Positions 3,144 to 55,268 of a stretch of 56,823 nucleotides of DNA are shown here, piece by piece; position 1 is the first letter of the stretch, and the number at the start of each line of letters is the position of its first letter. Origin of the DNA: Folioceros fuciformis. Taxonomy: Eukaryota. The position numbers were made by a program, and so were the translations under genes. The notes under the pieces were generated by a model. It searched no databases. It saw only the letters and a list, made by a program, of their open reading frames with translations, and was not told the origin of the DNA. The DNA lies in the NCBI GenBank assembly GCA_049999805.1, contig JBNGIO010006211.1, positions 79,026 to 135,848 of the forward strand, written 5' to 3'.

Positions 3144-5376
3144 TCAAGTCGTCAGAGTGACTGCCGAGGACTTGTCCTCCAGGTCGTTGTTGTAGTAAGA
3201 CCCGGTTGGGCAAGAGGAAGACGCAGGCTTGAACTCGTAAGGCCCTTGTCGAACTCCCCAAACCTACAAATCACAGCAGGCAGGCAAAATGTCATGCACT
3301 TGACAAGGCTTGACAGACAGAACAGACCTCTTCAAAGATTCCGATGACACTTCCGAACCTGATTGCCCTCATCATCATACGCACGATCCCAGCAGTGTAT
3401 CTCCCCGTTCCTATAGATTGTCAATTCTGATGTGCAGCGAGTGGCACCATTCTGCAACATAAATCCACACAGTTATAACATGACCGTCACAGGGACACTT
3501 GAACACATCCCAAAAGGCCGTGTCAGATATGTTGTACCCATGAATTTGGAAATCCACCAGGTGGAGTCGATCCTTCGTACAGGCAGCGTCGGCCCCGCTC
3601 ACAATGAGACAAGTAGACTGTAGTCAGGTGTTCAGCCATATCCTGCAAGTTCAACCCTAAAGCATCAATTGAGAAATTGCCCCTGACAACTTTCCCCATG
3701 GGTGACATGAGGCGTCCGAGCTCCAAGTGTGCAAGCACAGTTCTCTGACGAGAATCATAGCAAAACTTAATACCCCAACAATTTCTTCCGGCTGAGGCCG
3801 CTGATTTTTGGGTCGGTCACAAAAGTTTCTGTATTCTTCAATATCCCTCACAGCGTATGATGCCACCTGTATTCCCAAGCCCAGCTCCTTATCAGATTTA
3901 ACATTGAGCTAACCTCAACCAAGCCGCACAAGCTTGTGATGAAGGTGCTTCTTCCATGAGCATACCCACGAGGCAAAAGGTTTCAAAAGAACATGCACGT
4001 ACCTCCACATCGCACTTCATTTCCTTTGGGCAGGGCTTGACCAAGTAGAACCTCTGAATCCAACAGTCAGTACAATGTACTTATCAGCCGAGTAAACATA
4101 GCACGTTTGGCTTTTCCTGTATCAACCCTGGCTATCTCCAAAATAGGTCAAGAATTTTTCTTGGTATACTATTGCTACCTGCCGATACGGCCGTTCCGGT
4201 GTTCTCCAAAAGGCCTGAAACATGGATGCATACAACCCAGCTCAACATAAGGTTACCCCAACAAAAAAAATCGACCGCTTGATGCCGACAGAAGAGCACT
4301 AAAAACAGACGCTGCGTTCAGATGTTGAAAAAGAAGCGCAAATAATCAGTGTCACCTGTTCGAAGTACAACACTCTGGCTCCATCAGCAAGAACAGTTGC
4401 TGGACAGGTAAGTAGGCTGCGAGAGAGGGTAAGATGAGAACCACAATCCCGGCAACATAATTAAACTCACAAGTTCTCACTAGCTCCAGTCCAAGCACAA
4501 TAGACAGAGAGGCATGTACACCACCAGCAGTCACGTACATGAAACACCTAAAAACGACCAAAAACTGTGCCTAATGCTCACCGCAGGTTGAAGTAAGTCA
4601 TTGGATCCCGAGCTGCCTGACCTGTAGAAAACTGCAAGAAAACGGGCAACGTTCTATGTGAGTAAGTGCGGAAGGCCCATGTCAGCTCGCTACGAAGCAG
4701 TGGCTGTTGACCACCACATGAAGCCCTGTAGGAGTGTGTCACTTTAGTTCACTTTGCTGTGCTAACCCCTGGGAGTAACACTCAAAAAACCAGTGCGACA
4801 GAACATAGGAGCAGAGCGATGCTTACTCAGAAAGAGGGTATCTCCCAGAAAGAGGGTATCTCCCATCACACTCTCAGGAGAGAGCTCAATTGACACAACC
4901 CCATAAATCGTTCACAGCAAAATTCCCCAACCCTGTGAGCACACTACATTTCACAGACGACGAGTGCAGGTACCGCCTTTCCCCATTCTCAACGAGCTTG
5001 AGTTTAAACCTAATGTAAAATCGAGCGCAGAACGGGTCTCCGGGACGCCGCGAGCATGCATTCGACCCTAGACGACGAAGGACCGGGAAACCCAAGCCCA
5101 TCCAAGCAAGGTTGGTGAAACATTCGGCCGTCATGGCGAGGAACCAACCTTTTCCCCGCTCAGGGCCTGGGAAACAATGCGGGTGTGCTCCCACCGGGTG
5201 GTGGTTTTGGTGAGCCTGCGTATCAAAAACGCACCACCTAAGAGGCACACCGCCTTGAGCACCAAACTGCGCACCATACGCCCGCCATTGTGGTGCAGCG
5301 GGCCTCCATCTCCATTCCCCGACGGACCGGCCTCAAAACTGCCGTTGCCGGACGGTGTGGGCCTGTCACCAACCAT
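3144..5376 (-). CDS. CRL: CRUMPLED LEAF, plastid envelope CpcT/CpeT-like protein. Nine exons: 5376-5149, 4631-4582, 4416-4356, 4214-4179, 4053-4003, 3866-3774, 3642-3538, 3451-3359, 3263-3144
   Basis: Spliced translation LVLKAVCLLGGAFLIRRLTKTTTRWEHTRIVSQALSGEK|FSTGQAARDPMTYFNLR|..VLYFEQ|AFWRTPERPYRQ|RFYLVKPCPKEMKCDVE|VASYAVRDIEEYRNFCDRPK..|..CLYEGSTPPGGFPNSW|..WDRAYDDEGNQ|VWGVRQGPYEFKP matches plant CRL as recalled. All introns are GT-AG. Confidence 0.93.
4828..4863. repeat. 18-bp tandem duplication (CAGAAAGAGGGTATCTCC x2) in CRL intron 1
   Basis: Read directly from the sequence. Confidence 0.9.
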
Positions 5377-5620
5377 CCTCGCGCATCTGATGGCAGCTGC
5401 TCACAACGCGGATCCTACTACCCGCAGCTACAATGTCCAGCCCCCGTTTACATTCCTGGCCGCAACCCGGTACAGGCCACGGCCAATTGCGTCCGCGTCA
5501 AGCAGACGCCTCAGCCTGCTGCACTGTGAACTCAGCCGCGGAGACGCGCATCAGATTTTGGTTTGCACTGGACCGCCACAGAAGGCGATGTACAGCAGCA
5601 ACCAGACACACCGATGATCG

Positions 5621-5661
5621 CATACATACATACATACATACATACATACATACATACATAC
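5621..5661. repeat. (CATA)n microsatellite upstream of CRL
   Basis: About 10 perfect CATA units. Confidence 0.95.
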
Positions 5662-6169
5662 GTAGGTAAACGAGCCTCAGGCCACATGCCAACTGGGACG
5701 CCCAGTTAAATAGATTTCTTCTCTTCTCGGATTCTCCTCTGAGTGGGTGTTGGTTCCAGTGTGTTCACCCTTCTACGAAACAAAACCTTTGTGTCTTGGG
5801 ATTGTGGGAGGAAAGAAAGCCAAAACCCATCAAAGAGCAAGTGCGAGCAAAAGGAGCTGTTGTATACATCGAGCACATCAACAGGGAATAACCAAGAGGA
5901 GGTCGAGGTAAAGGACTTGTAAACCACATAGAAAGAGAAAGATGCATGATGTACAGCCTTGCGGAGAATCATCCATGCTACAAAATAGGCGTGAAGAAAA
6001 AAACTAGTATGTTAAACGAGTGAACCCCATTTTCAAGGAGTTTCTCAAGAAGCTTATGACTGCCAAACCGTAAACCAAAGGGCAATTTGGAATACACATA
6101 GATACCCTAGTTTGTAGTAAAGATAGCCTTGTCTTGGACTTTCTTGCATAGCGATATCCCATTGTATCC

Positions 6170-7010
6170 CGAATACCCATCTCAGACTCATCCACCCCCA
6201 CTATGTCTTCTCAGGCCCATACGAATACCCATCTCAGACTCATCCACCCCCACTATGTCTTCTCAGGCCCATATTCGCTCTGGTGTCTCGTAGGCAAGCA
6301 AGGACTCTTTACTTTTGGCTTAGGCAAGTGAGGATTGAGGCAAGCGAGGACTCTTTACTTTTGGAGGCTCTTGAGGCTCTATCTCCTTTTCTACGAAAGG
6401 GTTAAAGGGTCTCCATGCCTCCCTCCTAGAAAAGCGATATGGCCAAGCACTAAGAGCCCTTCTTTCCGATAAGCCCTTCTTTCCGACTTATCTATTAGCA
6501 CCACTAAGAGCCCTTCTTTCCGATAAGCCCGTCTTTCCGACTTATCTATTAGCACCACTAAGAGCCCTTCTTTCCAACTTTATCTATTAACACTAAGAGC
6601 CCNNNNNNNNNNTTCTCGGTTTGTATTGGCTTTTCTAAGGTAAAAGAGTGGGATCTTGGCTTTTTGCTCAACCTTGTATCCATGCCTTTCAAATCCCACC
6701 AACAATTTTCGCCACCTTTCAAATCCCACCAACAATTTTCGCCACCGTGATGAGATTTGAATTAGGTTTGGCCCACCCCCTTAACTTTTTCTCTCTCTAC
6801 ATGCAATTGTGGGGTTGCCATTGTCAATACAGGGTCTCGTCTGGCACATTGTTCCATTGGGGGGCACCAAATTGCCACCCATGACGTAATTCGAAATGTG
6901 ATGTTCCATTGGGGGGCACCAAATTGCCACCCATGACATAATTCGAAATGTGATGTTCCATTGAGGGGCACCAAATTGCCACCGATGACGTAATTCGAAA
7001 TGTGATGTTC
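6170..7010. repeat. Cluster of unrelated short tandem repeats: 52 bp x2 (6170-6273), GGCAAG..GGACTCTTTACTTTTGG copies (~6290-6365), ~52-bp CACTAAGAGCCCTTCTTTCCGA array (~6447-6602, runs into a gap), 30 bp x2 (~6686-6745), ~53 bp x3 (~6850-7010)
   Basis: Repeat units are visible directly. The region is AT-rich and contains an assembly gap at 6603-6612. Confidence 0.85.
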
Positions 7011-7019
7011 TCAATGGTT

Positions 7020-7330
7020 AGGGAGTATGGGTTTCTTTCATAGGGAGCATCCATATACTTTGTGCAAAGGGTTTCACTTTCATCCAACCTTTTTTTTACT
7101 AGGGGAGAATAGGTTTGTGTTGCCGATATGGTTGTTATGGATCTCACTACGAATTCAATTTGCAAGCACATCTTCATAAACCCCCTAGACGGGATGGCGA
7201 GGGTTGTACAAGGGCTAAAGTTCATAAGTATTCTCCCTTGCGAGATAAGCATACTTTCATCCCCTTTGCTCTTGAGACCTTTGGGGCTATGGGTACCTCA
7301 TCACCGATTTGTGCAGCTTGAAGACCTTAT
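7020..7330 (+). mobile_element. Decayed non-LTR retrotransposon fragment, restriction-like endonuclease (RLE) C-terminus
   Basis: Frame-broken VADMVVMDLT ... AKVHKYSPLRDKHTFIPFALETFGAMG resembles the D..D / K..KY / F.PF..ETFG pattern of RLE retroelements. Confidence 0.5.
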
Positions 7331-8289
7331 CACCGATCTATACAACTTGAAGTCCCACTACTTCAATCTTTGGCTCTTCTCTTCCATATGCCTCTCAACT
7401 ATCAACTTGTGGTGCCACTCTCTAACCCTTTAACAATCCAACAATGCTTTAACAATCCAAACAATTGTTAGCCTTTAGGAGAAACTTGACTAACCAGGGG
7501 CTCTTTATGAATGGTCTTCACCAACCTCTTCCTCCTTGTTCAGCTAAAGAGGTTCATGTTGTTTAGCCTTAAGCTTATAAACTAGGTTACTCAGGGATTC
7601 ATGTCAATGGCGATGACATTTTTGAAACATTGTGTAACTACAATTGAGACTTAAACCTACATATCCATCCAAAACCCAATGTCCTTTTGCCATACAACTC
7701 AATCAACTTCTTCAATAGCCACATTATAATGAGGTTGCTAATTAGTTTCTAACATGACAAGACTACTCGATCATCTGTTTTAGCGTAGCCACAAGCTCTA
7801 CTACCTTCTTTAAAAAACAATGGGTCACCCCCCTTTCAGTTCCCCCACTACCCCAAACCTCATCTTAGAGAACAATTGTTTTCATTGATAACGAAAATTG
7901 TTAGGTCACTGAATCCTTGATGGATGACCCAATTACTACATTCACCAGCATAATGTACCTAATCTAAAGACATGGCTCTCACATTTGTCTTATTTCGGAA
8001 ACATGAGGTCACTTCCTCAGTAGAGGACTCTTGCAAGACATCCCTAATCATGCTCATGTTATTTGAGAAAGGAAAATAACGACATGAAACACCCATGCTG
8101 TTGTTATAGCCTGAAATTGCATCATCAAATTTTCAATTTCCACTCAAAACGAGTACCAAACTTTCACGTCTAATCCTCATCTAATTCTTTGTCAAATCTA
8201 GTTGCATCAAAAGTGCAATCCTTACTCACTAACTTTATTGTATACAAAATATAATCTATGATTAAAAGTGTTTTCGGATTTCATCCATG

Positions 8290-9722
8290 GTCATCTGGTC
8301 GACCAGGTGCACACCCGTTAAGATCGTCCAGGTTGATTCCGCAGCGTAGGCAGCGGGTTTTGGCGTCTGCATGACACGGACGCTATTGGCAGTGGTCTGA
8401 ACCAGGTTGCGGCCAGGAATTGAAGAGTGTGCTGGATATTGTAGCTGCGGCAGTAGGATCTAGGGTGCCAGAAGCTGCGATCTGATGCGCCATGATGGTC
8501 TGTGACAGGCCTACCCCTTCCCGCTATGGCAGTCTTAGAGGCGGTCTGTCGTCGATTTGGATAGGTGGAGGCCCCCTCCACCACAGCAGGGGTCGTATGG
8601 TGCGCAGTTTCGTGGGCAAGGTTGTGTGCCTCTCAGGTGGCGCGTTTCTGATCCACAGGCTCATTATGATCGCTGCTCGGTGGGAGCGTACCTGTATTTC
8701 CTGGCCTTTATGGCGGAATATGTCATCAATCAGGTTGGATGGAGCTTGGGAGCCCGGTGCTTCATCGTGTAGGATCGAATGCAAGCCCGGGGCGTCCTGG
8801 ACATCCGTTCTACGCTCCAATTGTAGGTTAGGTTCACGCTCAAGCTCGTTCAGATTGGGGAAGTATTTTGCGGAGGTACTTGCAATCATCCCTTTGGGAT
8901 TTAGGCGTAGGCGATTCATTGGGTTGTGTCCAATTGAGCGGTCGCGTGAGCATGTGATTGGATATACTTAGAGCTTTGAAAGTTTCTCGAGCCATTATGC
9001 TTTTGTGCTGGTAGGAGGGTCGTTCTTTGAAAGTTGAATGAGGTCTATGCCAGCTTACCTGTGCCGTCGCCGTTCGGCTTGCAGATTTTTCCGGGTCAGG
9101 CTGGTCGAGCTCCAATGACTTACTTCAATGTTCGGTAAGTTTGTGTCATCTTTTTCTGGCTTGTTTGACTTGTACGTACGTGCCAGCGGGTAGTTGACAT
9201 GATCTATTGTGCTTGAGTTGGAACAAGTGACAACTGTCAAGGCAGAATATATGATCATAACTGTGGGTCTCAAGCTGACCACTAACTTGCAGGTTACTCA
9301 GTTGTCCAGCACCTATGCTTGCTGATGGAGGCAGAGTTTTGTATTTAGAACAGGTGACAATGAAATCTTGTAACACCTGCAATGCAGAGTTTGTTATGTG
9401 TGCTTCTCTGTATCTGCATCTCAGCGGTCCTTATTTTGTTAGAGGTGGTCATGAGCTGGGTTGTGTGCAGTTTGCCATGATTCATACTTCCTGTGGCACC
9501 CACGTTCCAGGCCTTTTGGAGATCACCTGACCGGGCCTATCAGCAGGTATAAACCCTAAACACGAGATCTTTCCGTACAGAAGGCAACCACATTTGGAAA
9601 CTTCATCTGGGGTGTCCTGTGCGAGTCCTTGTTTATTTGTTTTCTGTCACAAGTGTCTGACGTCTGGCCTCGCCTCTAGTGATTTCTAGGAATGGGGAAT
9701 TGAACAAGGGCCCTACGAGTGT
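8290..9722 (+). other. Inverted partial duplicate of CRL (5' flank, exon 1, exons 2-4, start of exon 9), probably the 5' exons of the PPR gene
   Basis: 8492 ORF MMVCDRPTPS..GPLHHSRGRMVRSFVGKVVCLSGGAFLIHRL is CRL exon 1. 9085-9134 IFPGQAGRAPMTYFNVR, 9293-9353 LLSCPAPMLADGGRVLYLEQ, 9511-9546 AFWRSPDRAYQQ and 9690- EWGIEQGPYE match exons 2, 3, 4 and 9. Confidence 0.9.
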
Positions 9723-11486
9723 ACAGATGACGAGGGACAGCTGGGCGAGGTCATGCAAGAGTTAGACCTCCTGGTGCACCTAGGAGTGTATGTTCCTGCA
9801 TCTCTCTTGTATCATGTCATCAAAAGGTGCATTGAGTGCAAGATTGTGGGTTTTGGCAAGCGTGTCCATTCTCTTACTGTAGCAAGTGGGTATGAACGTA
9901 ACAGATTTTTAGCTAACCACATCATCTGCATGTATGCTTCTCATGGGAGGCTGGAGGAAGCAACACATGTTTTTAGCAAACTTGCTGCACCAGACAAATT
10001 CATGTGGGCGTCCATCATCTTGTCACATGTTGATTATGGATCTCCTGCTCAGGCTATTAAGCTGTACGAACAGATGCGACAGTGTAGTGTGAAGCCAGAC
10101 AACCATGTATTTGTTGCTGTCCTTAAAGCGTGTGCCATGACATTGGATTTGGCAGGTGGCAAGAGGGTCCATGCTGATGCTTTGGGGACTGCTACTGAGC
10201 TCAATTTGTTTGTTGGCAACTGCTTGGTGGACATGTATGCAAAATGTGGAAGCTTAAATGAAGCTCGCAAAGTCTTTGACAGCCTGGCAATCCGGGATGT
10301 GGTTACATGGAATGCCATGCTTGGAGGGTATGCTCGGCGAGGGCTTGTTAAAGAGTCTCTGGATTTGTATTCAGTTATGCAAGATCAGGGCATCAATGTA
10401 GGGAATCATGTCACTATCTTGTGCCTGCTGAATGCATGCGCCAGTGTTGGAGCATTGGGCCAGGGAAAGGAGCTTCATGCGAACATTCAGAAAATTGGGC
10501 TTGAAGGTGATGTTCTTGTTGGGAGTAGCCTGGTGAACATGTATGCGAAATGTGGAAGTCTAGATGATGCGCGCAAAGTGTTCGACAGCTTGCCCACCAG
10601 AGATGTTGTGGCGTGGACTGCACTTCTCCATGGCTATGCCGAACATAGTCACGGCAAACTAGCATTAGACTGCTTCCAAGAGATGCAGCTACATGGGGTG
10701 GCGCCTAACGACACCACATTTATTTGCCTTCTTATGGCTTGCAGTCAAGAGGGGTTGGTGAATGAGGGCAAACAACTTTTCAAAGCTATGGTGGAGAAGT
10801 ATTCTATCCCACCCTCTGCACAACACTACACTTGCATGGTAGATCTTCTTGGGCGCTCAGGCTGTCTGCAAGAGGCAGAGAACATTCTGCTAAGTATGCC
10901 AATTGAGAGTGATGTTGTGGGTTGGACATCCTTGCTCAGCTCTTGCAACAGTTATGGTGACATAGATCGTGGGAGGCGGTGTTTCGAGCGGTTGATTGAA
11001 CTGGAACCTCAAAATGCAAGTGCATATCTGCTGCTGGGAAGTATGTATGCGAATGCTGGCTTGTGGAGGGATGCGAACAGAATAGAGATGCTGAGGAAGT
11101 GTGCAGGAGCGTGTAAGAAGCCTGCAAGAGCTTGGATTGAAGTGAACAGCAAAGTTCACTCTTTCGTCGTGGGCGAAGATAGGGATGATATTTCGTGCAA
11201 GCTAACGAGCGTCAATGCGCAGATGGAGGAACGCCTCATGGAGCCAGATTTGAGTGAAAGGGATGGTGCATTGTGTGGACATGCCGAAAAACTCGCGCTT
11301 GCCTATGGTTTACTGAACACTCCCAATGGCACAGCGCTGCTGGTTACCAAGAACCTCCGGATGTGCAGTGACTGCCACAACGGTACCAGGGCCATGTCTA
11401 GGTGTGAGAAGCGGGAGATCATAGTGAGGGATGCATATCGTGTGCACCATTTTGTGGATGGCGTCTGCTCCTGTGGATCTCTATGA
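9690..11486 (+). CDS. PLS-class PPR protein with E1/E2 and DYW:KP-type deaminase domain (candidate organellar RNA-editing factor, possibly U-to-C). Main exon; first in-exon ATG at 9753; likely extended 5' by CRL-derived exons
   Basis: About 11 L/S/P motifs (e.g. LVDMYAKCGSL.EARKVFD.L..RDVV.W). KKPARAWIEV replaces the PG box. HAEKLALAYGLLNTP..LLVTKNLRMCSDCH..HHFVDGVCSCGSL*. Confidence 0.93.
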   Translation, partial: EWGIEQGPYECTDDEGQLGEVMQELDLLVHLGVYVPASLLYHVIKRCIECKIVGFGKRVHSLTVASGYERNRFLANHIICMYASHGRLEEATHVFSKLAAPDKFMWASIILSHVDYGSPAQAIKLYEQMRQCSVKPDNHVFVAVLKACAMTLDLAGGKRVHADALGTATELNLFVGNCLVDMYAKCGSLNEARKVFDSLAIRDVVTWNAMLGGYARRGLVKESLDLYSVMQDQGINVGNHVTILCLLNACASVGALGQGKELHANIQKIGLEGDVLVGSSLVNMYAKCGSLDDARKVFDSLPTRDVVAWTALLHGYAEHSHGKLALDCFQEMQLHGVAPNDTTFICLLMACSQEGLVNEGKQLFKAMVEKYSIPPSAQHYTCMVDLLGRSGCLQEAENILLSMPIESDVVGWTSLLSSCNSYGDIDRGRRCFERLIELEPQNASAYLLLGSMYANAGLWRDANRIEMLRKCAGACKKPARAWIEVNSKVHSFVVGEDRDDISCKLTSVNAQMEERLMEPDLSERDGALCGHAEKLALAYGLLNTPNGTALLVTKNLRMCSDCHNGTRAMSRCEKREIIVRDAYRVHHFVDGVCSCGSL

Positions 11487-11614
11487 AAAGTAAATATAGC
11501 GGGACCTATTAGTCAACCGTAGAAGTACACCGTTCTGATAACAGTGTGCGCAACACAGAAACGTTTCACATGCAATTGAAATCAGGATGCTCAAAGGACT
11601 CTGCACCAACACAG

Positions 11615-12090
11615 GATCTGAGTACGTGCAATAGTCCGGAACTACTTTGTGTACAAGATTCAGCAGGTCATGGTGCGTGGTGACAGATCTGGAATTTTCC
11701 ATCATCTTGTACTGCAGGTAAAAGGTTGATAACTCAAGGGGCAAGATGGATAGCTTCCAGCACCCCTACTGTTTTTCACCGATTTCTGACCAAGGACCAC
11801 TCTGTTGTTCACATCTTGTTTCGCAGGCCGTGCTTTGGCAGCCTGCTGCTACATAAGGAGTCGTTGCTGTGGCAGTGTGTAGAATAGACTAGATGTTGGA
11901 GTGTGTCTGGTACAAACTAGTTAGGGAGTCAGGTTGGGTCGCAAGAACGGGCGTAAAGGCTTAAGTGCATTTATGACCAGCGCGAACGAGGACCTCGTGC
12001 CTGGTCGTTGCCATCACACACAGCAATAGGGAGAAGACGGAGCACAACCACAACTCACGTGGCAAGAAAATGTCAGAACACATCAGCCAT
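11615..12090 (-). pseudogene. Decayed duplicate of the last exon, 3' flank and part of the last intron of the EDR1-like kinase
   Basis: Colinear with 15285-15800, e.g. GAGTCAGGTTGGGTCGCAAGAACGG..AAAGGCTTAAGTGCATT vs GAGTCAGGTTGTGTCGCAAGAATGG..AAAGGCTTAAGTGCATT. Confidence 0.85.
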
Positions 12091-13059
12091 GAGACGCGTG
12101 CCGGGGCGTCGGCAAGCAAGTAATCAAAATTTCAGTTGCGAGAATTTTAAGGTGTTCTCTACCGATGGTAGACTAGCACATCCTCATCGAAATGTGGATT
12201 TGAGGTGTGAACACTTTATCGTTGCAAGATAGCCCACTGTTCATCGAAACGCGAAATGCAAGGTGTACTCTATCGAGTGTCCCCGTGGAAATCTCGCGGT
12301 GTAGCGTCTTGGCAGAAGTTTCGGTTGCAGATGTTGTTCTCGCTTGGAATGTCTTGCGGGCTTCGCCCCTAGGCTTACAAGTGTTGATAAGCCCCACTAG
12401 GATGCGAAACCTAGAAAACATGTACATACTCAACAGGAGGTTTCAGCCCAAAATTCGAGCTGAGACTTCAGGCTTCCCCAATGAACAGGATGGTACGGTA
12501 CCCCCAGCATACGAGTCAACATTAGCGGACATAGGGTGCTGGGAGCTGACAAGAGAAGGTCGGTGCAAGGGAGGAAAGGTAGAGGCACGGCTCACTAGGC
12601 AAACAGTAGATGGTCCCCCGTCTGGCCAGGAGATCTTGCGCTTCATCCGTCTGGCCAGGAGATCNNNNNNNNNNCGCTTCATCCGTCTGGCCAGGAGATC
12701 TTGCGCTTCATCCGTCTGGCCGGCACATCATTTAGCGGCAGCCCATGTTGCAGCCTAGCAAGGTTTTTACACCCATAAAGGCTCTATCCAATAAAGATTT
12801 CGTCTGTAGGCGATGGGCACTTCACTACCCGTGGCTGCAGAGCGCAATGGAGTTGATATAATCACGGGAGCAGCTTGGAGAGGAGAGATTATATACAGGG
12901 CTCTCGAGCGAAGGAAGGAGAGGACCGAAACGTGCTGCACCTGAAGCAGTCTGCTGCCTTTGTCTAGTATATGATACTAGCTCTGCCACGGCTGTAGTAC
13001 ATGATACTAGCTCCTCCTTGGCCACGGCTAAAGTGAAAAGAATGCAGCTCCACTCCCAA

Positions 13060-14364
13060 TCAGGATTGCTTGGCATTCACCATGTAGATGGCAGCCAGAG
13101 TGACAGTGGCTCCAAACAGTTGCAAAGGAGTGAGAGTCTCGTGCAGGAAAAGGTATCCGAAGAGGGCAGCGAACATGGGGGTGAGGAAGGTGAGAGAGCT
13201 GAGCTTGGTGAGGCTACCTCGGGTGGCGTTATAGAAGAAGATGCCGTAACTGACAGCGCTGCCGAACACGGAGGTGTACACCAGCGCAGCCCAGTCGGTA
13301 GGTAGGAGCTCCTGCAACCCCCCACTCAAAGCGGGGTCATGCTGTGCCGCCGACAGGGCTAGCAGCGGCAGTCCTCCTAGGATCATGTGCCATCCTGTGG
13401 CCATGACGGGGTCCGAGTACTTGCACACCCAGCGCACCATAACAGTCCCCACCGCCATGCTCTGTGCCGCCAGCAGCATCCACCACTCCCCGCTCTCCCA
13501 CAAATTCCATCCCGAATCCAAGCTCAACCCGAGCCCGCCCTGAAGCGCCTCCGGGGGGACCTCCAATAGCAAAAGCCCGGCCACCCCAGTAGCCAACCCC
13601 GCAGCCCCGACCGGCCCGATGTTCTCACCGAACAGTATAGCCGCCAGTACAGCCACCGTGAGTGGCTGCGAGTCGATGATGACGCTGCCCAGCCCCGCGC
13701 TCGTCCGCCTCAAACCCTCCACTAGGAACCCCTGGAAGCAGGCGGCGTCTACCAGCCCGAAGAGCGCGATGGCAACCCATGCCTGCACCCCCGCCGGATG
13801 CTTCCTTCCCTTCCAGACCGCGAAGCTTACAAGCAACGCTCCCGAGGGTATCAGCCTGGTGGCCGCCACGAAGAGCGGGCCGGCTTTGGGCAGCACGTCC
13901 TTCATGGCCACCATGGCCGTGCCCCAGAAGAAGAAGGGCGAGATGAGCAGCGCCGTGTCCAGCACTTGCTCTAGCAGCATAGACCCCGACTCCACATCCG
14001 CATTCCTCCTGTTGCTGGTGCTAGCTCCATCCAGCTCCACATTCTCCTCTTCTGCTCCTGGGCGGACCAGGCACTCGACATCCGCACCAGTCCCCACACA
14101 ATCCAGCTCCACCTCCTGCTGTAGCTGTTTCTCCGAGCCGGCTCTCACGGTCATGGGAGTGGGAGCCCGGTGAGCCCGTCCCTGTGCTCCCCAGGCATAA
14201 GGGTGTGAATGGCCTCCATGCTTGGCGATGTTCGTAAGCACTTGGAATCGGTGTCCCGTAGATCTGCTATCTCCTGCATACCCAACACATTTGTGCTCAA
14301 CGGGTGGCCGGGCCCGACACGATGGGTAGGGGTTGCCGGACCAGCACCAGCCCAGCGTCGCCAT
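13060..14364 (-). CDS. EamA/DMT-family membrane transporter (plastid WAT1-related type), single exon, ~434 aa
   Basis: Transit-peptide-like N-terminus, then LISPFFFWGTAMVAMK..GPLFVAATRLIPSG..FQGFLVEGL.RTSAGLGSVIIDSQPLTVA and a second EamA repeat ending GSLTKLSSLTFLTPMFA. First ATG is at 14364. Confidence 0.9.
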   Translation of the reverse strand: MATLGWCWSGNPYPSCRARPPVEHKCVGYAGDSRSTGHRFQVLTNIAKHGGHSHPYAWGAQGRAHRAPTPMTVRAGSEKQLQQEVELDCVGTGADVECLVRPGAEEENVELDGASTSNRRNADVESGSMLLEQVLDTALLISPFFFWGTAMVAMKDVLPKAGPLFVAATRLIPSGALLVSFAVWKGRKHPAGVQAWVAIALFGLVDAACFQGFLVEGLRRTSAGLGSVIIDSQPLTVAVLAAILFGENIGPVGAAGLATGVAGLLLLEVPPEALQGGLGLSLDSGWNLWESGEWWMLLAAQSMAVGTVMVRWVCKYSDPVMATGWHMILGGLPLLALSAAQHDPALSGGLQELLPTDWAALVYTSVFGSAVSYGIFFYNATRGSLTKLSSLTFLTPMFAALFGYLFLHETLTPLQLFGATVTLAAIYMVNAKQS

Positions 14365-14749
14365 CCTTACCCCTCGCTCCGCCACCTACGCTTCTTGAAC
14401 ATGGAAAACGGCACAGGAAGCAGGGAGTGAGGGGGGAATAGGTAGTATGCATAGCTTCTTCAGGCATAGGTCTGTGCTTTGCCTGAAGCTATGCATATCA
14501 AATTCAGACACGCGTTTGTTTTAGGTGCTCTGCCAGCTACGTGAGTCTGCAGCGCACGAGCCGCCTCCAGGCTGCGTGCAGGCAGCAGATTCTACAGGCG
14601 CTGAGGCGAGGTGGAGCACGGTCTACAGAGGCTGGGTACAGTTTTTGCGTGGACAGAAGTCAATGGACGTCCGAAGTGGCCCTTCGTGTGCGCCCCTTCT
14701 ACCTGCGTGTGCTCTCGTACTGTTGTCTGCTTCGATGTCTTCTCTCATC

Positions 14750-15260
14750 CCATCTGGTCGATCAAGTGCAAACAGGTTAGCCCGTCCCGATGTTTTCGAA
14801 GGGTAGCCAGCAGGGCGATCGTTTGCGTAAGGCGGACCCTACAGACAGGGGCTTGGCCTAAAGCGGGTTGCAGCCAGGAATGTAAGAGGGGGCCGAACGT
14901 TGTAGCTGCGAAGAAGGTTGCAAGCAGCTGCCATCAGATGCGCCAAGATGAGTCTGTGACTGGCCTAAACCGTCCAGACATGGCAGTCTTGAAAGCCGTG
15001 CGTCACGAGAACGGGGAGACCCGCTCCACCACAACAGCAGCCGTATGTTGCCCATGCAAGTGATTAAAGCTGTATGCCTCAGCTTCTCAGGCGGCTCGTT
15101 TCTGATCTGTTCGATCACCAAGATCACCTGCCCGTGAAAGGACATCTGTACTTACTAGCCTTAGTGGCCGAACATGTTACTCAATCTGCTTGGATGGAGG
15201 TGGGGTTCCCAGTCCCTCATCCTGTAGGATAGAGTGCAAGCCCGTGGCGCCCTGAACGTG
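14750..15260 (+). pseudogene. Second, more decayed copy of the CRL 5' flank and exon 1
   Basis: Colinear with 8290-8810 and with the reverse complement of ~5040-5520 (GGGTTGCAGCCAGGAATGTAAGAGGGGG..GCAGCTGCCATCAGATGCGC..CCGCTCCACCACAACAGC..). Frameshifted. Confidence 0.85.
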
Positions 15261-15439
15261 TGTTATGGTTCAGAGTCCAGAAGAGTACCTCAGTACTCGC
15301 AATCGTGCGAAGCCATTTTGTTTTGAAGCTGCATGAAACAAAGCATCGCGAGTGGTGACACTACCAAATTACAGATGTCGAATTTTATCAACTTCGTCAT
15401 CATGTACTTCATGAGAAGGTGTTAGAAAATTTCTCCAGG

Positions 15440-18400: not shown

Positions 18401-20616
18401 TCCAGGGCACCCATACCCTGGGGAACATATTTGTCGATGCCTACAAGCTGTGAGGCTGTCGGGCCGCTCTCTTGTGGCCCTGAAGATTGAGCTGTTTTGC
18501 TCCGACTATCACATTTTACATCATTGGAAGTTTCTGCAGTCCTGGATGCTGACGTTGTGGATGTCCTGCTTTCTTCTCCATGTGATTCTGTTGATGATAC
18601 CCCATCATCCTGCCTCGACTCCAATCCGATGGTTGCCAAAGGTGCATTTATTGTAGACGGTTCCAGTAGGTTTAAGGAGCCGGTCACATCAGGCGGGATG
18701 AGCGTACCGGGATCCCCCACCAGGTCTACTATGTACTCCCTGTGAAATGAACGAAACAACACAAACTGCACATGAATCTCACGTAACTGAGGCACTTTCA
18801 CGGCAGGCAATAATGCACACCTGTGTCTACAACAAAAATTACACGTTGCAGGCAGCAAACAAACAGCTTCCAAGTTCTAAGACTAATGTCAGGAGTGCAG
18901 CTTCAGTAGTGTCTGCAGAAGAGAACTGGTAAAGGAAAATCAGCATACCTATCATCATCGCCCTTGACAATGTTCAAGGCACCTTCATCAAGCCCGGTGT
19001 AGAGGCGTCCTTTTAGAAGCCGACTAGGGATCCCAACATGGTCGGCCAGAACCTGGAACGGACGTACACGCACGTGTAGTCAAAAACAATTAATTTCCAC
19101 TAACCACGATGGGTGCTTGCACAATCAAATTTAGAGCAAGCAAAGGAGAGAAACAAGGAACAAAGAGAAGCTGGCAACGTCCTATTGGTATACTAAGTGC
19201 AAAATGCACCTTAAACAGTAGTGCACGATGACGAGCTAAGCCGATGCTTAGTCTACCCAAGGGCAACACGATATTGTGAATAGAGGATTTCAGCGCCCAA
19301 CTTGTTGTTCTCCACACGGTCAGCATATCGATGTCGCTGGCCACAGGTCCACCCATGTGTTCAGCCACTAAACGTGCAAGACTTTCCACAAGACCCCTGC
19401 TCCGATACCCAGGCTCAACAGCTCCGAGCTCATACGCCAATGCCAGTGCCCGCTTTTCCAGCACAAGCAAGTCAGGATCTGTTGCTCTATTTACAAGAAC
19501 CACTTCGTAAGTGATGGTATCTATAACAGGGAGTGCTTCCAGATCCGAGAGAGAGGGCATTCTTTCGAACATAGTTGATTCAGTGATACCATAGACATCA
19601 TAAAACCCGTCTACCACATAGTCCTCATAACCAAGGTAGTTGTAGGTCTGCAAAGTGAGAGCAGCAACAGTCTTCCCGTCAGAAGAGGTGCAAGATTGGA
19701 TCTTTCCTTGCTGGTAACCATAATGCACTACCCGGATTTCAGTCGACCAAGAATAGACATGCAAAGTTTCAAATGAAGCTTTCTTGGACTTTAGACAGTG
19801 CGGACGATCTGTACTCCTGATATGTCGGAACCTTCAATCAAAGCGCAAGTGACAGACTGCACAGACCATTCACTGAAAATGTGGAGTATGAACGGCTCAT
19901 TTTTCAGCTAACAGGAGAGGTGACAATACAACGCACCACATGCTGTAAGCATACTCAGAGCTTCACAGATGCACCCAGCCAGCCCCAACAACCAGCTGCA
20001 TCACACCAGGGAACCGCTCTTCATGCCCTGCCCTCTAAAAATCTCAGTCAGCTTCACCTACCCAGTACCGATATGCAATGACCTCAGCTTGCACAGCAGC
20101 CGTCGACGGGCTCAGGCCAAGACTTATCCTCTTCACAGCCTCGATCTCAAGGATTTCTGGATCCACGTTCTGCTCATTGTTGGATGCACTGATCGCCATG
20201 GCCAGCTGCACCTGATACTCCTCCTCCATAGACTGATAATCCACATTACTCGAAGCTACTCCAAAAGTGGCCACCCCAGAGTTGGTCCCCGTCAGCGTTC
20301 CCGTTCCCGCTCCCATTCCCCCAGATCTAATCCCCTCCGGCCCAGCACTGGCCACACTCTCCCTCCCCGGCCGCACGCTCCCTGCCCCGCCCACCTGGCT
20401 GTGTGCAATGGACGGCAGCTGCCGACCCAGCCACCCCGAGATGGCGCTGGCAGGGGACAGCCGCTGATCAGATGACGCCGCTGCAGACTCAGCGTGCCCG
20501 GCTCGGCCAGCTCCGCTACCGGTGTCGTCCGCTGCTCTCGCTTCCGGCGCCCTCGCGCCATCTACATGATCGTCATGCCCGCCTCCGAAGTGCAATTTCC
20601 TCAGCAGATGCTTCAT
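15440..20616 (-). CDS. B3-group Raf-like MAPKKK (EDR1/CTR1 family), multi-exon
   Basis: MKHLLRKLH start; [18 protein letters not shown]1 domain ([22 protein letters not shown]). Kinase exons [61 protein letters not shown]. Introns are GT-AG. Confidence 0.93.
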
Positions 20617-24162: not shown

Positions 24163-25030
24163 TCAGTTGGTGCAGCACGCTCTCTTCTTGGCTGCGGCAG
24201 CGCTATCGGTGTTCCCCGGGACTATGATCGCAGTCCCTTCTCCTGGACCAGACGTAGAGGTTTCTTCGGAGGCCAAAGCTTTCTTGCTTACTATCCGGTA
24301 AATTTCAGTCAAAATCCTCTGGAATGCCTTCTCCACATTCGTAGATTCCAGAGCCGATGTCTCAACAAACGAGAGCCCCTCTCGCTCAGCGAAACTCGAC
24401 GCATCCTCGGTGGTGACTCCTCTGAGATGTTTGAGGTCCGACTTGTTGCCTACCAGCATGATAACAATATTGGAATCCGCATGATCCCTTAGCTCCTTCA
24501 ACCACCTTTCCACATTCTCGTACGTGATGTGCTTGGTGATATCATACACAAGAAGCGCCCCAACTGCTCCCCGGTAATAAGCACTTGTAATTGCCCTGTA
24601 CCGTTCTTGCCCTGCTGTGTCCCAAATCTGAGCTTTCAGGGTCTTTCCGTCCACCTGAAACACAGACATATCACCAACCCTAAATACAGCGTCCTCGCCC
24701 GGCTCGCCTACCTTGTCCCATACTCCATGAGTAAGGTTTCAAACCTAAAAGCCAAGACCCCGACAAGACTATCACAGCGCCTTACCAGAGCACCACCTTA
24801 CATTTTTGCTTTCAAAGCAACGAAACAATCAAGCTCATGTTAGCTCCGACGCAAAAGGGGAAAGATACCTGTATTGAGCGAGTTGCAAATTCCACACCAA
24901 TGGTGGACTTGGACTCCAAACAAAACTCGTTTCTAGTGAATCTGGACAGCAAATTGGACTTGCCAACGCCCGAATCACCGATCAACACAATTTTAAACAA
25001 ATAGTCGTACTCCTCATCTTTATGAGCCAT
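24163..25030 (-). CDS. RABA: RabA (Rab11-family) small GTPase; exons 25030-24869 and 24654-24163
   Basis: [42 protein letters not shown] and C-terminal CCTN prenylation motif. Confidence 0.96.
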
Positions 25031-26070: not shown

Positions 26071-28115
<2,045 letters not shown>

Positions 28116-28863
28116 GGGCCAGGTTTGATTAGAGAGTTGAGTCTCCACCTTTGGATTTACAACTCAGCCATCCCTCAAGTGTAGGGAGGGATGATGCTGG
28201 AGGTGTGTGAATTTAGCATCGTTGGTGNNNNNNNNNNGTAGGGAGGGATGATGCTGGAGGTGTGTGAATTTAGCATCGTTGGTGCCTTGTTTTGGGAGAG
28301 ACCATGTTTTGGAGTTTGAAAGCCCATCCAAAGTGTGAAGTATGTATGTACATGCCGTGGTTGAGGATGACCGTGGTCAAAATGCTCCATGTCTGCAACA
28401 GTGTTGGCGTAGAGGGTGTCAGGAATGTTGGAGGCCACCAGGCTTTTGGGCTGTACAATCGGAGGCGTAGTGCGATGGTGGTGATGGAGCATGCGATGGG
28501 TCCCAGTCGTTCGCACCCGCGCTCCGCTCGCTCAAATCCCCGCAAAACTGCTGCTGGCTGTCCCTGACTGGCCGCTACCTTCCGCTTCTCCCTCGGTTGG
28601 GCCTCGCAGATCTGCCCTGTCCGCCCTGGCTTCCCCGCGAGTTTGCCGCTGGTGTCCCGATCCGTGTCTTCTCGGCCCGTGCCGGAAGCGGGAAGCGCTG
28701 TGAGCTCGGTTTGCGTTTCCGACGGAATTGGGCGATTTGCAGGAGGGATGGCCGGGAAGGAGGCCGGTGTTTGGGATTTGTGGGCGGTAGGATTAGCGCA
28801 ATTCGGGATGGTGGGCGGGATTGAGCTTGGGAGGTAGGAATTCGGAAGCCTGAGTGGGTCACG

Positions 28864-34403: not shown

Positions 34404-35102
34404 NNNNNNNNNNNNNNNNNNNNNNNNNNNNNNNNNNNNNNNNNNNNNNNNNNNNNNNNNNNNNNNNNNNNNNNNNNNNNNNNNNNNNNNNNNNNNNNNN
34501 NNNGGGGGGCTTCCTTGCTTCCTTTTAGTGTTACAGGTTATGCGTGTGTGTCAAATGGGGCCGGGCAGGGACTCGAGGTCCGAGGTAGATTATCGAGAAA
34601 CGTGGGTTGATTCCGTTTCGTAGGGCACTGGGAGGAAGGCAGGAGCTGGGGACTGGTTTTTTCTGGCTTTGAGAGCAGTAGGAATTGGCGGACAGTGAAA
34701 GGGAGCGTGAAAGTTCCGGCGCCTGGTAGGCCATGCCTGCGGGTGGCCTGGTGACAGCTTGCCGCACTCCCCGCTGCTCTCAAAGACCCGGAGCGGAGGG
34801 GAGAGGAGAGGTGAAAGGCGTTGACGCGGGCCAATACTTGTGCTGTCTGCTGGCAAATTCGGGGACCCGGGACGTGGCGGAGCCTTGCGCTGGGTAGTTG
34901 GAGCGCATCCTGCTACTGTTCTCGTTGTGGTGGGTGGTGGTGTTCCTGCTGGAGCTCTTGATCGGGAGGAGCTGTATCGTTCTGGGCGTCTCGGGGTCAG
35001 TGNNNNNNNNNNNNNNNNNNNNNNNNNNNNNNNNNNNNNNNNNNNNNNNNNNNNNNNNNNNNNNNNNNNNNNNNNNNNNNNNNNNNNNNNNNNNNNNNNN
35101 NN
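34404..35102. other. Two 100-N assembly gaps (34404-34503, 35003-35102); 10-N gaps also at 6603, 12665 and 28228
   Basis: N runs in the sequence. Confidence 0.99.
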
Positions 35103-38156: not shown

Positions 38157-39707
38157 CTACGCTACCAGCACTTGGCAGCCAATCACCTCCTCCGCCTTCG
38201 CTCCCAGCACGGCAGGCATCTGCCGGTACACCACTGATTGCCCGTCGTCGGCCGCATCCAGATCCACGATGGAGATCTGCAGGTACCTCCTCACCACGTA
38301 CAGCTTCCTGCCCAACCCGGCGATGCGCGGGTTGTCCTGCAGGATCTCCGCCCACGGCACCTCCCGAAACGACAGCCCTTGGAGGTAAATCCAACCTATG
38401 CCTTGCTCGTCCGCCACCCGCACCCGGCCCGCTGCCCAGTCCAGTGTGTGCAACTTCCCCATGAGAACCGTGCTCAGCCCGTACCTGAATGAAGAGTAGG
38501 TGCCACACAAAAGCATGATTCAGCGCGCAGGCAGGGCCAATCCGGCTGAGGATACAAACACAGCTTCGAAAGCCTTCGAAGAGGCTTCGTAAGCAGCGCT
38601 TTCAAGTGAGAAGCAATCCCTGAATCCTCAGGGCACACTGCAAAATGTAGACGGCAGCAAGAGGAAAAGAAGGGCGGACGAAGGCGTAACCTAACCAGCA
38701 AATGAAATTCTTCACGACATAGCCCTTGCAGAAAGCAAACACGGGAGAAAGAAGACGATGTGAAGATTCGAGGAGGAAGCAGAGACGAAGAAATCCATTT
38801 GTGCTGAAAACAAACGCAAGGCTAGCGCTGAGCTCACACGAATCGAAACTGACCTGAGCAGAGCCTTCATCTTGCTGGAGCGGGGGTGCCAGGCGCCATC
38901 GCCGGGGTCGTAGAGCTTCACCATGGTGCGGTGATCCACATGGTCGCGGTAGGAGCAGTAGAACTTGTCGTTGGCCAGGGACATGGTGAGCCAGCCGGGG
39001 TGCCATCCCACGTGATAGCCGGCGGTAGGGGAGGCGAGGCTGAGCTGCGGGGGCTCCCGGCTGGGGACGCTGCTCCACTCGTCCAGCGCGAAGTCGTAGC
39101 ACTCGGCCGCGTGGAGGAGGTTGTTGCCGCAGTCGAATCCGCCAAGGACAAACACCTTGCCACGCAGCACCGTCACCAGGGGGCTATGGCGAGTGTGGAT
39201 CATGCTCCTGGCCCGCCGCCACCGGTTGGCGAAGGGGGAGTAGATGAAGAGGTCGCGGAGCGTAGGGCCGCTGGCGCCCGCCTTCCCTCCCATCACCAAC
39301 AAGCGGCCACGGAACACGGCCGATCCCCGGCCGAACACCTCCGGACTCTGCCCCCGCTTCCGCGGAATGGCAGGCACCGCCAGCCACTTCCCCGCTGTGG
39401 CGTCCAAGGCATACCACGACACCCGCCTAGTCTTCCTGTTCCAAGTCTCCACATACAGCCACTCCTCCGTCGCTCCAACCTCTTCCCGCAGCTCGTGGAA
39501 GCCCGACGCAGCTATGGCGCCGCGCCAGGCCCGCGACACGCCTCTCAACTGGTGCAGGCTGGCGCGCGGCAGTCGCGCTAGGCACAGCTCCGCTACCTCG
39601 TTCGGCAGGCCCGGCAGGATCGCGGATTCCACCTCGGAGTCTACTTCCCCCGGGCTCCCGCTCAAGGAACTTGCTTTCCTCTTCCTCCCTCGCTTGCGGC
39701 CAGCCAT
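38157..39707 (-). CDS. F-box/kelch-repeat protein; exons 39707-38854 and 38484-38157
   Basis: Basic N-terminus (RKRGRKRK), F-box ILPGLPNEVAELCLARLP..LRGVSRAW, kelch repeats (LLVMGG..YSPFANRW; VFVLGG..AECYD..W). Phase-2 GT-AG intron. Confidence 0.9.
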
Positions 39708-40070
39708 GGATTCAGCACCAGCATTGCACAACCAAACCAGCCAGAGTTCGATTCCGAGCCCGCTTCTTCCTCCTCCTCAAATTCCTTCCTCCTTTCACCT
39801 GCTTCTTAGATCGGATTGCAGGCTCCTTCTAAGCAACACACACAAAGAAACAAACAACCAACCAAGGTATTGACGACGGAACAATGCTCGCACTCCCGTC
39901 ACCTCACCGCGGTCAAGCAAAGCAAAATCTGCGATCCGATATCAGCAAGGCTGAAACTCCTGATCCAAAGCGATCCATTGGCATTCCCAACAACAACTCA
40001 CCTTGCGGCTGGCACGCGGATTCAGCACCACTCAGTACTGCACCGTCAGACGCTCGCAATCTCATGGCTC

Positions 40071-53300: not shown

Positions 53301-55268
53301 ATTACCTTATCTCGCAACTGTACTTTCAAGGAACTCTCTTCTCCTAAGTTGCATGTTGATCCAACTAGAGATACATCTCCTCTAGATGAAGATCCTTCTC
53401 TGGATTCTCCCTATATGTATCCTGTCTCAGATGGAGATTCGCCTAAAGTACAGGATCATGAGGATGCTAATCAAGCTGTACTGGGTAATGGCAACATCAC
53501 TGAAGATGAACAGACTAAGGAAGTGTTAGCCGATTTACCTGCTGCTCCTGTTCTGGATGAAGATGATTTGAATTCTTCTGGTCAGGATGTTGAGGATGGT
53601 CCTCTTACTGCGATGGATGAGGATGGACAGTCCATGCAAGGTTCTGAAGATGTGCTGTCCAACTCTGATTCTCATGTTGGTGATCCTGCACAAGAAGGTT
53701 CAGATGTAGTTCAACCAGAAACGAGATATCCAACTCGTGAGCAACGAAGAAGGGAAAATTGGTTGGAACCACCCTATCAAGCTTTTGATTTTCACCGACC
53801 TGCTGTAAATGTCTCAGATCTTCATGTCCCTGATGTTAGACCAGATCCTCAGACATATTCAAAGGCTCTGAATGGACCAGATGGAGACCACTGGTGGAAA
53901 TCTATACAAGACGAGTATAATCGTCTTATTAACAACAGACCATGGGAGCTTGTTGACCTACCAGTTGGAAGAAAACCCATTAGCTGCAAGTGGGTCTTCA
54001 AGACCAAGTTGAAGTCTGATGGGACCATTGCACGCTACAAATCTAGATCAGTAGCTAGGGGGTTTAGTCAAATCCCAAGGATAGACTATGGTGAGACGTT
54101 TTCCCTAGTGGTCAAGCCCCCGTCCATTCGCATTTTGCTTGCAATGGCTACTGAGTACAATTTGGAGGTGCACCAGATGGATGTGTGCACTGCATTTCTT
54201 CATGGTGAACTTGAGGAAATGCTGTATATGCAGCAACCAAAGGGGTTCGTCAATAAGAAGGATGCCCAGAAAGTATGTCACTTGTTGAAAACTATTTATG
54301 GACTGAAGTAAAGTCCCCGGGCTTGGCATAAAAGAATTATTAAATACCTGTGTAAGCTGGGTTTTCTTCAAAGTCCGGCGGATACCAATGTCTTCTATCT
54401 GGCTTCAGGTGCTTTGTTTGTCATCTTGGCATTGTATTTTGATGAATGTGTCTTGCTGGGTAATGACCTAGGCCAGATGGACAAAGTTAAAGACATGTTA
54501 CGACAGGAGTTTGAAATGACTTACCACGGTGAACTCCAGTTTTGCTTAGGAATTCAGATTCTTAGAAATAGGCAAGCAGGTCAAATCATACTCCATCAAA
54601 CTAAGTACCTTAAGGAAATCTTGAAGCGGTTTAATCTGGATGCAGCTCGTCCTGTGACCACACCATCAACTGTGGGGGAGAAGTTGACACAAGCCATGTC
54701 ACCACAGAGTCCGGATGCGATTTCTGACATGAGCCTTGTGCCTTATGCTGAAGCTGTGGGTTGCTTGATTTTTCTAGCAAATTGGACAAGGCCAGTCATT
54801 AGTTATGCAGTACGTCAGGCTTCTCAATTCCTCAAACAACCTGGATGGTTACACTAGGCGGCTGTTAAAAAATGCATATATAGATATCTTAAAGGAACCA
54901 TCTCGTATGGTCTTCACTACACATTCAGTGGGAGCAACATTTTAACACTTATCTCTTATGCTAATGCCGACTAGGCGTCTAATGCTGACACTCGTAGGAG
55001 CTTGTCGGCATACTGCTTCATGTTGTCCTCAGGATCTGTTAGTTGGAGCTGTTTAAAGCAGACTTCCCTTGCTCTGTCCTCTACTGAGGCGGAGTACAAA
55101 GCTCTTACAGATTCCTGCAAGAAGGCTGAATGGCAACGACAGTTCTTAGAGTCAGTAAATCAAACTCAAAAAGGGCCTACATTGCTTCACTGTGACAATC
55201 TGAGTGCTATAGCTCTTGTCTCTAATCCTAGATTCCATGCACGCACAAAACATATAGAATTGTACCAT

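Follow-up and report, generated by a model that had tools for sequence, protein, structure and literature searches.

Editing factors of the pentatricopeptide repeat (PPR) family number hundreds to thousands in hornworts, ferns and lycophytes, and the acquisition of expression signals and of organelle targeting by new PPR copies is rarely seen directly. Chimeric genes reportedly arise by partial duplication and capture of 5′ exons, as is said of Drosophila jingwei and of the chimeric genes surveyed in rice, and the targeting presequences of rice rps11 and rps14/sdhB are said to come from duplicated 5′ exons after organelle-to-nucleus gene transfer. The acquisition of presequences after organelle gene transfer is a topic of PMC8317393. 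According to excerpts of PMC11845758, the DYW domain of PPR proteins of the DYW:KP type opens with a lysine-proline pair where the PG box would otherwise stand, and this domain measures 132-133 amino acids (aa), contains a conserved active-site lysine (Lys88 of KP6) and has a C-terminal end that is variable among KP proteins. Excerpts of PMC9478123 describe a zinc signature HxE(x)nCxxC with an alanine after the histidine, hornwort KP proteins that end in DRH or GRP, and the designer proteins KP1-KP3, which are of the hornwort PPR-DYW:KP type with its DRH and GRP subgroups; domains of 115 aa or less were set aside there as defective. Here we describe a locus of Folioceros fuciformis in which an inverted partial duplicate of CRUMPLED LEAF (CRL) precedes a PPR-DYW:KP coding sequence. 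It lies in a window of 56,823 nucleotides (nt) of contig JBNGIO010006211.1, the whole stretch of DNA that was analysed, and the homology comparisons of CRL copies were made within this window. The chimeric transcription unit is real, i.e., one transcript carries sequence from both parents, and the locus is a known type of event, a chimeric gene formed by partial duplication. No CRL-PPR chimera was found in the literature searched or in the protein collection, and the literature searched gave nothing relevant on chimeric PPR genes.

The parental CRL gene is intact in the same window (Table 1), and its structure was fixed by one contig of run X1. Since this contig joins eight CRL introns (CT..AC ends) with 0 mismatches, X1 holds RNA-derived sequence; the run is taken as such solely on account of its spliced contigs, and a joined form could in principle also be DNA. 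The nine parental exons measure 228, 50, 61, 36, 51, 93, 105, 93 and 120 nt. When exon 1 was used in a full HMMER scan, 87 homologues reached E ≤ 1e-3, and the name chromophore lyase CRL stands on two of the six that were looked up. The predicted protein has the features of CRL, i.e., an N-terminal hydrophobic segment followed by the conserved motif, and a CpeT/CpcT-like domain whose exon matches are sub-threshold: with single-exon queries, CpeT matches were colinear on exons 6 (E 0.11) and 8 (E 5.4e-4; 20.3 bits, with a cut-off of 21). A tetranucleotide microsatellite is located at 5614-5673, directly upstream of the X1-covered 5′ region of the gene.

An inverted CRL copy upstream of the PPR open reading frame (ORF) had been proposed in the initial annotation of this DNA, and the comparison of 8000-9760 with the window by blastn recovered the parental gene, inverted, in four blocks. 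The first aligned 8350-8862 with parental 5522-4979 (72.5% identity, E 6e-86), and was followed by 9078-9469 with 4638-4227 (68.6%, E 4e-31), 9500-9549 with 4225-4176 (84%, E 2e-9) and 9650-9720 with 3302-3233 (77%, E 7e-9). Parental 3303-4175, which holds exons 5-8 with the CpeT/CpcT-like domain, gave no blastn match within 8000-9760 and faces a gap in the alignment, in agreement with the annotated loss of these exons. The copy thus retains the 5′ untranslated region (5′UTR) and the first four exons and, from the far end of the gene, the last part of intron 8 together with 31 nt of exon 9. Its exons 2-4 are of parental length (50, 61 and 36 nt, the parental lengths now being fixed by X1 joints), are bordered by AG/GT and contain no stop codon, all as annotated, and the introns between them measure 158 nt (165 in the parent) and 157 nt (141 in the parent). 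The letters at the exon-9-type acceptor also agree with the initial annotation. The hydrophobic N-terminal segment was kept, and the CRL motif that follows it is altered or deleted; because this motif is not intact and exons 5-8 are absent, the copy is not a CRL. The beginning of the copy was remodelled: homology to CRL exon 1 extends from 8492 to about 8697, a 33-nt deletion removed the parental exon-1 donor, and 8698-8875 (58 codons) is former intron 1, bounded by a replacement donor that reads GAG/GTAC at 8875/8876. Since the parental donor is deleted, any model that starts at 8492 and enters exon 2, such as the 775-aa model discussed below, depends on this new donor. As to the annotated takeover of the CRL promoter, what can be retained is at most the core promoter and the 5′UTR, because beyond the first contig-covered base the homology continues upstream for only about 60 nt.

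We then turn to the RNA. A 684-nt X1 contig with 0 mismatches has two joints, 9353/9471 and 9546/9690, which leave out 117 and 143 nt, both with GT..AG ends, and it reached 10235; other contigs cover 10227-11718, and overall X1 contigs cover 9688-11718 at 0 mismatches. The second joint is the predicted pairing of the CRL exon-4 donor with an exon-9-type acceptor, and the locus, covered by spliced contigs in which CRL-type exons are joined to 9690, is not silent. The first joint departs from the prediction, since the contig uses 9353/9471 and the annotated joint 9353/9511 is not among the X1 joints listed. Further upstream, X1 record 3 covers 8377-8873 and has 54 further letters, a number that results when 2 ambiguous letters and another 2 that exon 3 and intron 2 have in common are added to the 50-nt exon 2; by this arithmetic the record fits a joint 8875/9085, not itself a listed one, with a branch after exon 2. 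Two contig ends fall exactly at the exon 2/exon 3 borders (9135-9292). Judging from the contig ends, such a pattern would fit the co-existence of spliced and intron-2-retaining chimeric transcripts. Contig depth is one figure per contig, and an attempt to bound a minor 9353/9511 isoform, or exon 1 relative to later exons, from depth bins was dropped for this reason. The spacer at 5640-8311 and the introns of the copy are without X1 contig cover, and these blanks were not used as evidence. A run of N lies inside the 2.8-kb spacer between the parental gene and the chimeric copy, and their exact spacing is therefore not certain.

The exon found in RNA (exon 4′, Table 1) is the CRL-type exon plus 40 nt, and these extra nt put a TGA in both frames, so that the recovered mRNA cannot encode the fusion: the ORF that begins at 8492 in the CRL frame is 184 codons long, ending with the TGA at 9528-9530, and the PPR frame is closed by the TGA at 9476-9478. 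With the CRL-type acceptor, the annotated frames were reproduced, i.e., the frame from 9690 runs 21 stop-free codons into the PPR ATG at 9753, and both the 775-aa model (8492-8875, exons 2-4 and 9690-11486) and the 637-aa model from 9115 are open. The in-frame fusion is obtainable only via an alternative splice form that uses the acceptor 9510/9511, which retains its pyrimidine-rich tract. The initial annotation had taken the in-frame fusion of CRL leader and PPR, of 637 or 775 aa, as the main product. Both frames are indeed open, all the CRL-type splice sites are intact and the 9546/9690 joint was confirmed, but the spanning contig uses 9470/9471 instead of 9510/9511; furthermore, where paths compete, contig assembly usually retains the one with more coverage, and the in-frame form thus probably did not predominate in the sample. 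We consider it quite improbable that the fusion is the main product. Hence, of the proposal that the PPR sequence took the CRL promoter and N-terminus as a new leader, the spliced CRL/PPR chimera stands, but the recovered mRNA breaks its frame.

The recovered mRNA is also a poor template for the PPR protein alone, with 17 ATGs preceding 9753 in a 749-nt leader (mRNA model built from the supported exons). Translation of the PPR protein might still begin at the ATG of its own ORF (9753), by reinitiation or on shorter transcripts, and the CRL exons would then be a pure 5′UTR or regulatory module that contributes no residue to the protein. In the recovered form, the TGA at 9476-9478 is followed by no in-frame ATG before the one at 9753, and one relative, P0025 (687 aa as ORF-called), also begins at the first shared motif. 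However, scanning to 9753 is unlikely past 749 nt of leader with 17 upstream ATGs and a 184-codon ORF in good context, and no shorter transcript was seen in X1, though contigs cannot show RNA starts. In addition, a protein that starts at 9753 with acidic residues would have no room for a targeting peptide, whereas six of the seven aligned relatives carry 40-150 further residues before the first shared motif. Translation from 9753 is for these reasons unlikely, if somewhat less so than a fusion as the main product.

The PPR part itself appears well preserved. Its ORF of 577 codons has no stop and no frameshift, and its Pfam matches are all above the curated cut-offs (PPR_2 9.5e-47, PPR 3.1e-43, E_motif 1.7e-13 and DYW_deaminase 2.9e-30); they place an E motif between the PLS-type PPR array and the DYW deaminase domain. 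In the alignment with seven relatives, the KP pair at the start of the domain aligns with KP in five of them (P0025 has RS and P0030 has KA), HAE and CSDCH are present, and H531, E533, C559, C562 and H563 occupy invariant columns. The lysine K554, in the stretch TKNLRMC, is likewise invariant, and from its place before CxxCH it probably corresponds to Lys88 of KP6. On these motifs the protein is predicted to be a U-to-C-type editing factor. When a 598-aa frame was used as the BLASTP query, 4170 of the 8000 scored proteins matched at E ≤ 1e-20; the best 120 of these were at most 52% identical and included neither an orthologue nor a self-match. The nearest relatives were 49-52% identical among these best 120, and 55-59% identical in the alignment. 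Where the other seven family members do not vary, in 162 columns, the PPR body deviates at 12, and the same test on each of the relatives gave 11-21 deviations in 161-171 columns, which indicates that the PPR body is not degenerate but as conserved as its relatives. A neutral ORF of 1731 nt would be expected to have collected about 18 indels at the rate of the copy introns, if it were as old as the duplicate.

What the PPR part lacks is a leader of its own, in agreement with the initial annotation: the window protein, the shortest of the eight aligned proteins, has none of the 40-150 extra residues found in six relatives, and only P0025 starts at the first shared motif as it does. Homology to PPR relatives reaches back to about 9721, and CRL homology ends at 9720. 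Because the one begins directly where the other ends, the PPR sequence has lost its own leader, and its junction with the exon-9 remnant is in frame. A likeness of the junction peptide to the leader of P0053 was dismissed, since DNA homology to CRL intron 8/exon 9 explains this stretch.

The reading that we put first, and hold tentatively, is that of a captured CRL 5′ end, with a non-productive main mRNA and a minor in-frame isoform that gives the protein. An old partial inverted duplicate of the neighbouring CRL, which kept the 5′UTR/core promoter region and the other parts named above, came to adjoin a DYW:KP PPR sequence that had lost its N-terminal leader, and in the DNA the two are in frame. 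The CRL piece would then work as a captured 5′ end that supplies the start region and the 5′ exons. The recovered mRNA, formed through an acceptor 40 nt upstream of the CRL-type exon-4 acceptor, would be non-productive for PPR, any PPR protein would come as the 775-aa in-frame fusion via the intact 9510/9511 acceptor, and the choice of 3′ splice site would throttle the output of a U-to-C-type editing factor. The argument for this reading is that the PPR part looks selected and needs a leader, and that the only in-frame source of a leader is the CRL-derived exons via 9510/9511. A more specific version is possible but rather doubtful: the 9471/9511 acceptor choice might act as a switch between non-productive mRNA and the 775-aa protein, and a leader rebuilt from an outer-envelope membrane anchor, with more arginines, fewer acidic residues and a former intron recruited as coding sequence, might carry the U-to-C-type factor into an organelle. 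In the first 40 residues encoded by the exon-1 copy there are 6 R+K and 1 D+E (3 and 3 in the parent), and a more basic and less acidic N-terminus is the direction that would be expected of an import leader.

The constraint on this leader was examined by comparing the copy with its parent. A first, gap-rich alignment, in which exons and introns seemed to diverge alike, was overturned by a gap-poor alignment, in which mismatches number 35 in the 178 nt of exons 2-4 and the exon-9 remnant, where no indel occurs, and 135 in 351 aligned nt of the introns, where indel events number 8; the upstream/5′UTR segment has 30 mismatches in 145 aligned nt. The copied exons do therefore diverge less than the introns, as the fusion model anticipated, but the parental exons are under constraint, which by itself can account for most of the difference. 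In favour of coding are the three junctions in phase and the open frame, although a fast-evolving leader and a lucky pseudogene might both look so.

Several observations weigh against a functional leader and against the reading that depends on it. Because the parental exons are constrained, only the copy lineage was counted for indels, and the absence of indels from 178 exon nt is then not significant (P about 0.16). Constraint at the protein level did not clearly emerge: pairwise dN/dS (the ratio of non-synonymous to synonymous substitution rates) was 0.34 on 59 codons (exons 2-4 and the start of exon 9), and among the 15 residue differences 11 fell on the copy lineage, none on the parent, and 4 were ambiguous when three full and two partial CRLs served as outgroups. 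Several of the copy-lineage changes affect positions that are invariant in CRL, and the copy-specific changes in exon 1 are distributed over codon positions 1, 2 and 3 as 2, 11 and 8. The leader has lost CRL-type constraint, and coding constraint on it is weak. The N-terminus of CRL, moreover, is an outer-envelope membrane anchor and not a transit peptide, and we therefore only infer that a leader derived from it could target a soluble editing factor. On the side of the RNA, no continuous ORF crosses the junction in the recovered splice form; the joint 9353/9511 is absent among the X1 joints listed, contigs dropping rare variants, and the productive isoform is accordingly hypothetical. Residues 1-60, used to search for a protein that spans the CRL-PPR junction, gave 12 candidates, none significant, among proteins of 328-1047 aa. 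(With the exon-1 ORF of the copy as query against proteins of 87-279 aa, none of the 14 candidates reached E ≤ 1e-3.) On the side of the enzyme, the deaminase domain has 122 aa where the seven relatives have 132-135, it is shorter than the described DYW:KP length, and a 9-10-residue in-frame gap is located directly before HAE. By position this gap would fall on the β-finger of the OTP86 gating domain, the removal of which markedly lowers editing (excerpts of PMC7611903). The C-terminal triplet is GSL, neither DRH nor GRP; the ends of the relatives are DRH in four (one with 2 extra residues), DAH, GRP and DRP. It is possible that the deaminase domain shows decay.

These findings bear on another explanation, which we regard as a possibility of lesser weight than the captured 5′ end: the locus could be a transcribed chimera that is dying or never was functional, with a frame broken in the mature RNA and no PPR protein, and with an ORF that is intact only because the break, or the arrival of the PPR sequence, is recent. 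Such a chimera would be in line with a sole recovered splice form that is frame-broken and has 17 upstream ATGs, with a pseudogene-like drift of splicing (the exon-1 donor deleted and replaced, a new acceptor used), with leader changes that are mostly non-synonymous and strike conserved CRL residues, with the deaminase gap of about 10 residues and the altered C-terminus, with a sister fragment that is clearly dead, and with the lack of an orthologue in the protein searches. However, the PPR part departs from invariant columns about as often as its relatives do and not more (12 of 162), its 577-codon ORF has neither stop nor frameshift, three separate junctions are in phase with a 775-aa frame that is open, and the deaminase gap is itself in frame. 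The locus is thus either throttled by alternative splicing or decaying.

The sister fragment is a third, dead 5′ piece of CRL (Table 1), and 8292-8802 of the copy aligned with 14751-15257 of it at 70% identity (blastn, E 2e-54). It carries a 1-nt insertion, and hence a frameshift, after the ATG, and a stop. The 33-nt donor deletion is common to this fragment and the copy, so both descend from one earlier duplicate. In the 512 columns of a three-way alignment, unique changes numbered 92 in the third fragment, 53 in the parent and 50 in the copy. The slower change of the copy relative to the dead fragment was rejected as proof of coding constraint, because the slowdown was also seen in non-coding parts and because the dead fragment is more diverged even than the parental-intron branch, so that this relative-rate argument lacks its clock. 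The third fragment has an EamA-type transporter gene on one side and an EDR1/CTR1-like kinase gene, with its 3′ end nearest, on the other. In the copia-type element of the window, RVT_2 is divided between two ORFs by a stop. The genes of the window are a few kb apart and their introns are short, which points to a compact plant genome.

Table 1. Coordinates of the chimeric locus, its parental gene and the other features of the window
Feature	Position	Strand	Basis
Parental CRL coding region, 9 exons, 279 aa (ATG 5376, stop 3144)	3144-5376	-	X1 contig, 8 joints
CRL-derived upstream and 5′UTR segment	8319-8491	+	Aligned with parental 5575-5377 and third fragment
First coding-capable exon of the chimera, 128 codons	8492-8875	+	Alignments, ORF check, splice-site check
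Copy of CRL exon 2, 50 nt	9085-9134	+	blastn, alignment; presence in RNA from contig-length arithmetic only
Copy of CRL exon 3, 61 nt	9293-9353	+	Covered by X1 record 4, which joins 9353 to 9471
29-nt indel relative to parental intron 3, bearing acceptor AG 9469-9470	~9467-9495	+	Alignment; insertion or deletion, no outgroup
Exon 4′ as in RNA, 76 nt; last 36 nt (9511-9546) are the CRL exon 4 copy	9471-9546	+	X1 contig
CRL exon 9 remnant, first 31 nt, behind intron-8-type acceptor	9690-9720	+	blastn, alignment
PPR-derived coding sequence, 577 aa (first ATG 9753, stop 11484-11486)	9721-11486	+	Pfam, alignment, X1 contigs
DYW:KP-type deaminase domain, 122 aa from KP pair to end (HAE, CSDCH, ends GSL)	11118-11483	+	Alignment with 7 relatives
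EamA transporter	13060-14385	-	Pfam
Third, dead fragment of the CRL 5′ region: exon 1 with the sequence before it and the first part of intron 1	14749-15285	+	blastn, three-way alignment, ORF list
EDR1/CTR1 peptidase-like domain of kinase gene	19090-19833	-	Pfam
Ras/Rab-type GTPase exon	24163-24738	-	Pfam
Tubulin	26797-27784	+	Pfam
F-box/Kelch protein	38712-39776	-	Pfam
Copia-type long terminal repeat retrotransposon interior	51168-54857	+	Pfam Retrotran_gag_2, retroviral polymerase SH3-like domain, RVT_2
Runs of N (assembly gaps)	6603-6612, 12665-12674, 28228-28237, 34404-34503, 35003-35102

Both parents of the chimera lie within 6 kb, the parental gene next door is intact, and the dead sister fragment provides an internal control. 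Because all of them are found in one window, each step can be read, i.e., the partial duplication, the loss of the donor, the new donor, the new acceptor and the in-frame PPR junction. An in-frame isoform, should it exist, would make the locus a compact system in which to study how a leader evolves from a membrane anchor and how splicing controls the dosage of an editing factor; if the acceptor switch operates as outlined, it would represent the birth of a new targeting leader from a source that is not a transit peptide, with splicing as the throttle. If the in-frame isoform is absent, the locus would be instructive in another way, as an ORF that spans predicted exons but has no counterpart in the transcript actually made.

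Compared with CRUMPLED LEAF (chromophore lyase CRL), the copy has homologues of exons 1-4, the exon-9 acceptor and the hydrophobic N-terminal segment, but it is without exons 5-8, and with them without the CpeT-like domain, and its conserved motif is altered or deleted. With the hornwort PPR-DYW:KP proteins, the window protein shares the PLS array, the E motif, the KP pair, HAE, CxxCH and the TKNLR lysine, and its nearest relatives end in DRH, DRP or GRP; unlike them, it is the shortest of eight, leaderless, has a domain of 122 instead of 132-133 aa and ends in GSL. The capture of presequences offers a parallel to the architecture of the locus, since a leaderless coding sequence stands behind exons from a gene with an organelle-bound product and is spliced to them; here, however, the donor CRL encodes an outer-envelope membrane anchor rather than a cleavable presequence, and the in-frame form is not among the listed joints. 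Finally, the locus differs from the chimeric genes formed by partial duplication in that its recovered RNA is without a continuous ORF and its recipient is an organellar RNA-editing factor, but as in those genes, the parent of each half can be recognised, a duplicated neighbour supplies the start region and the 5′ exons, and one transcript spans both halves.

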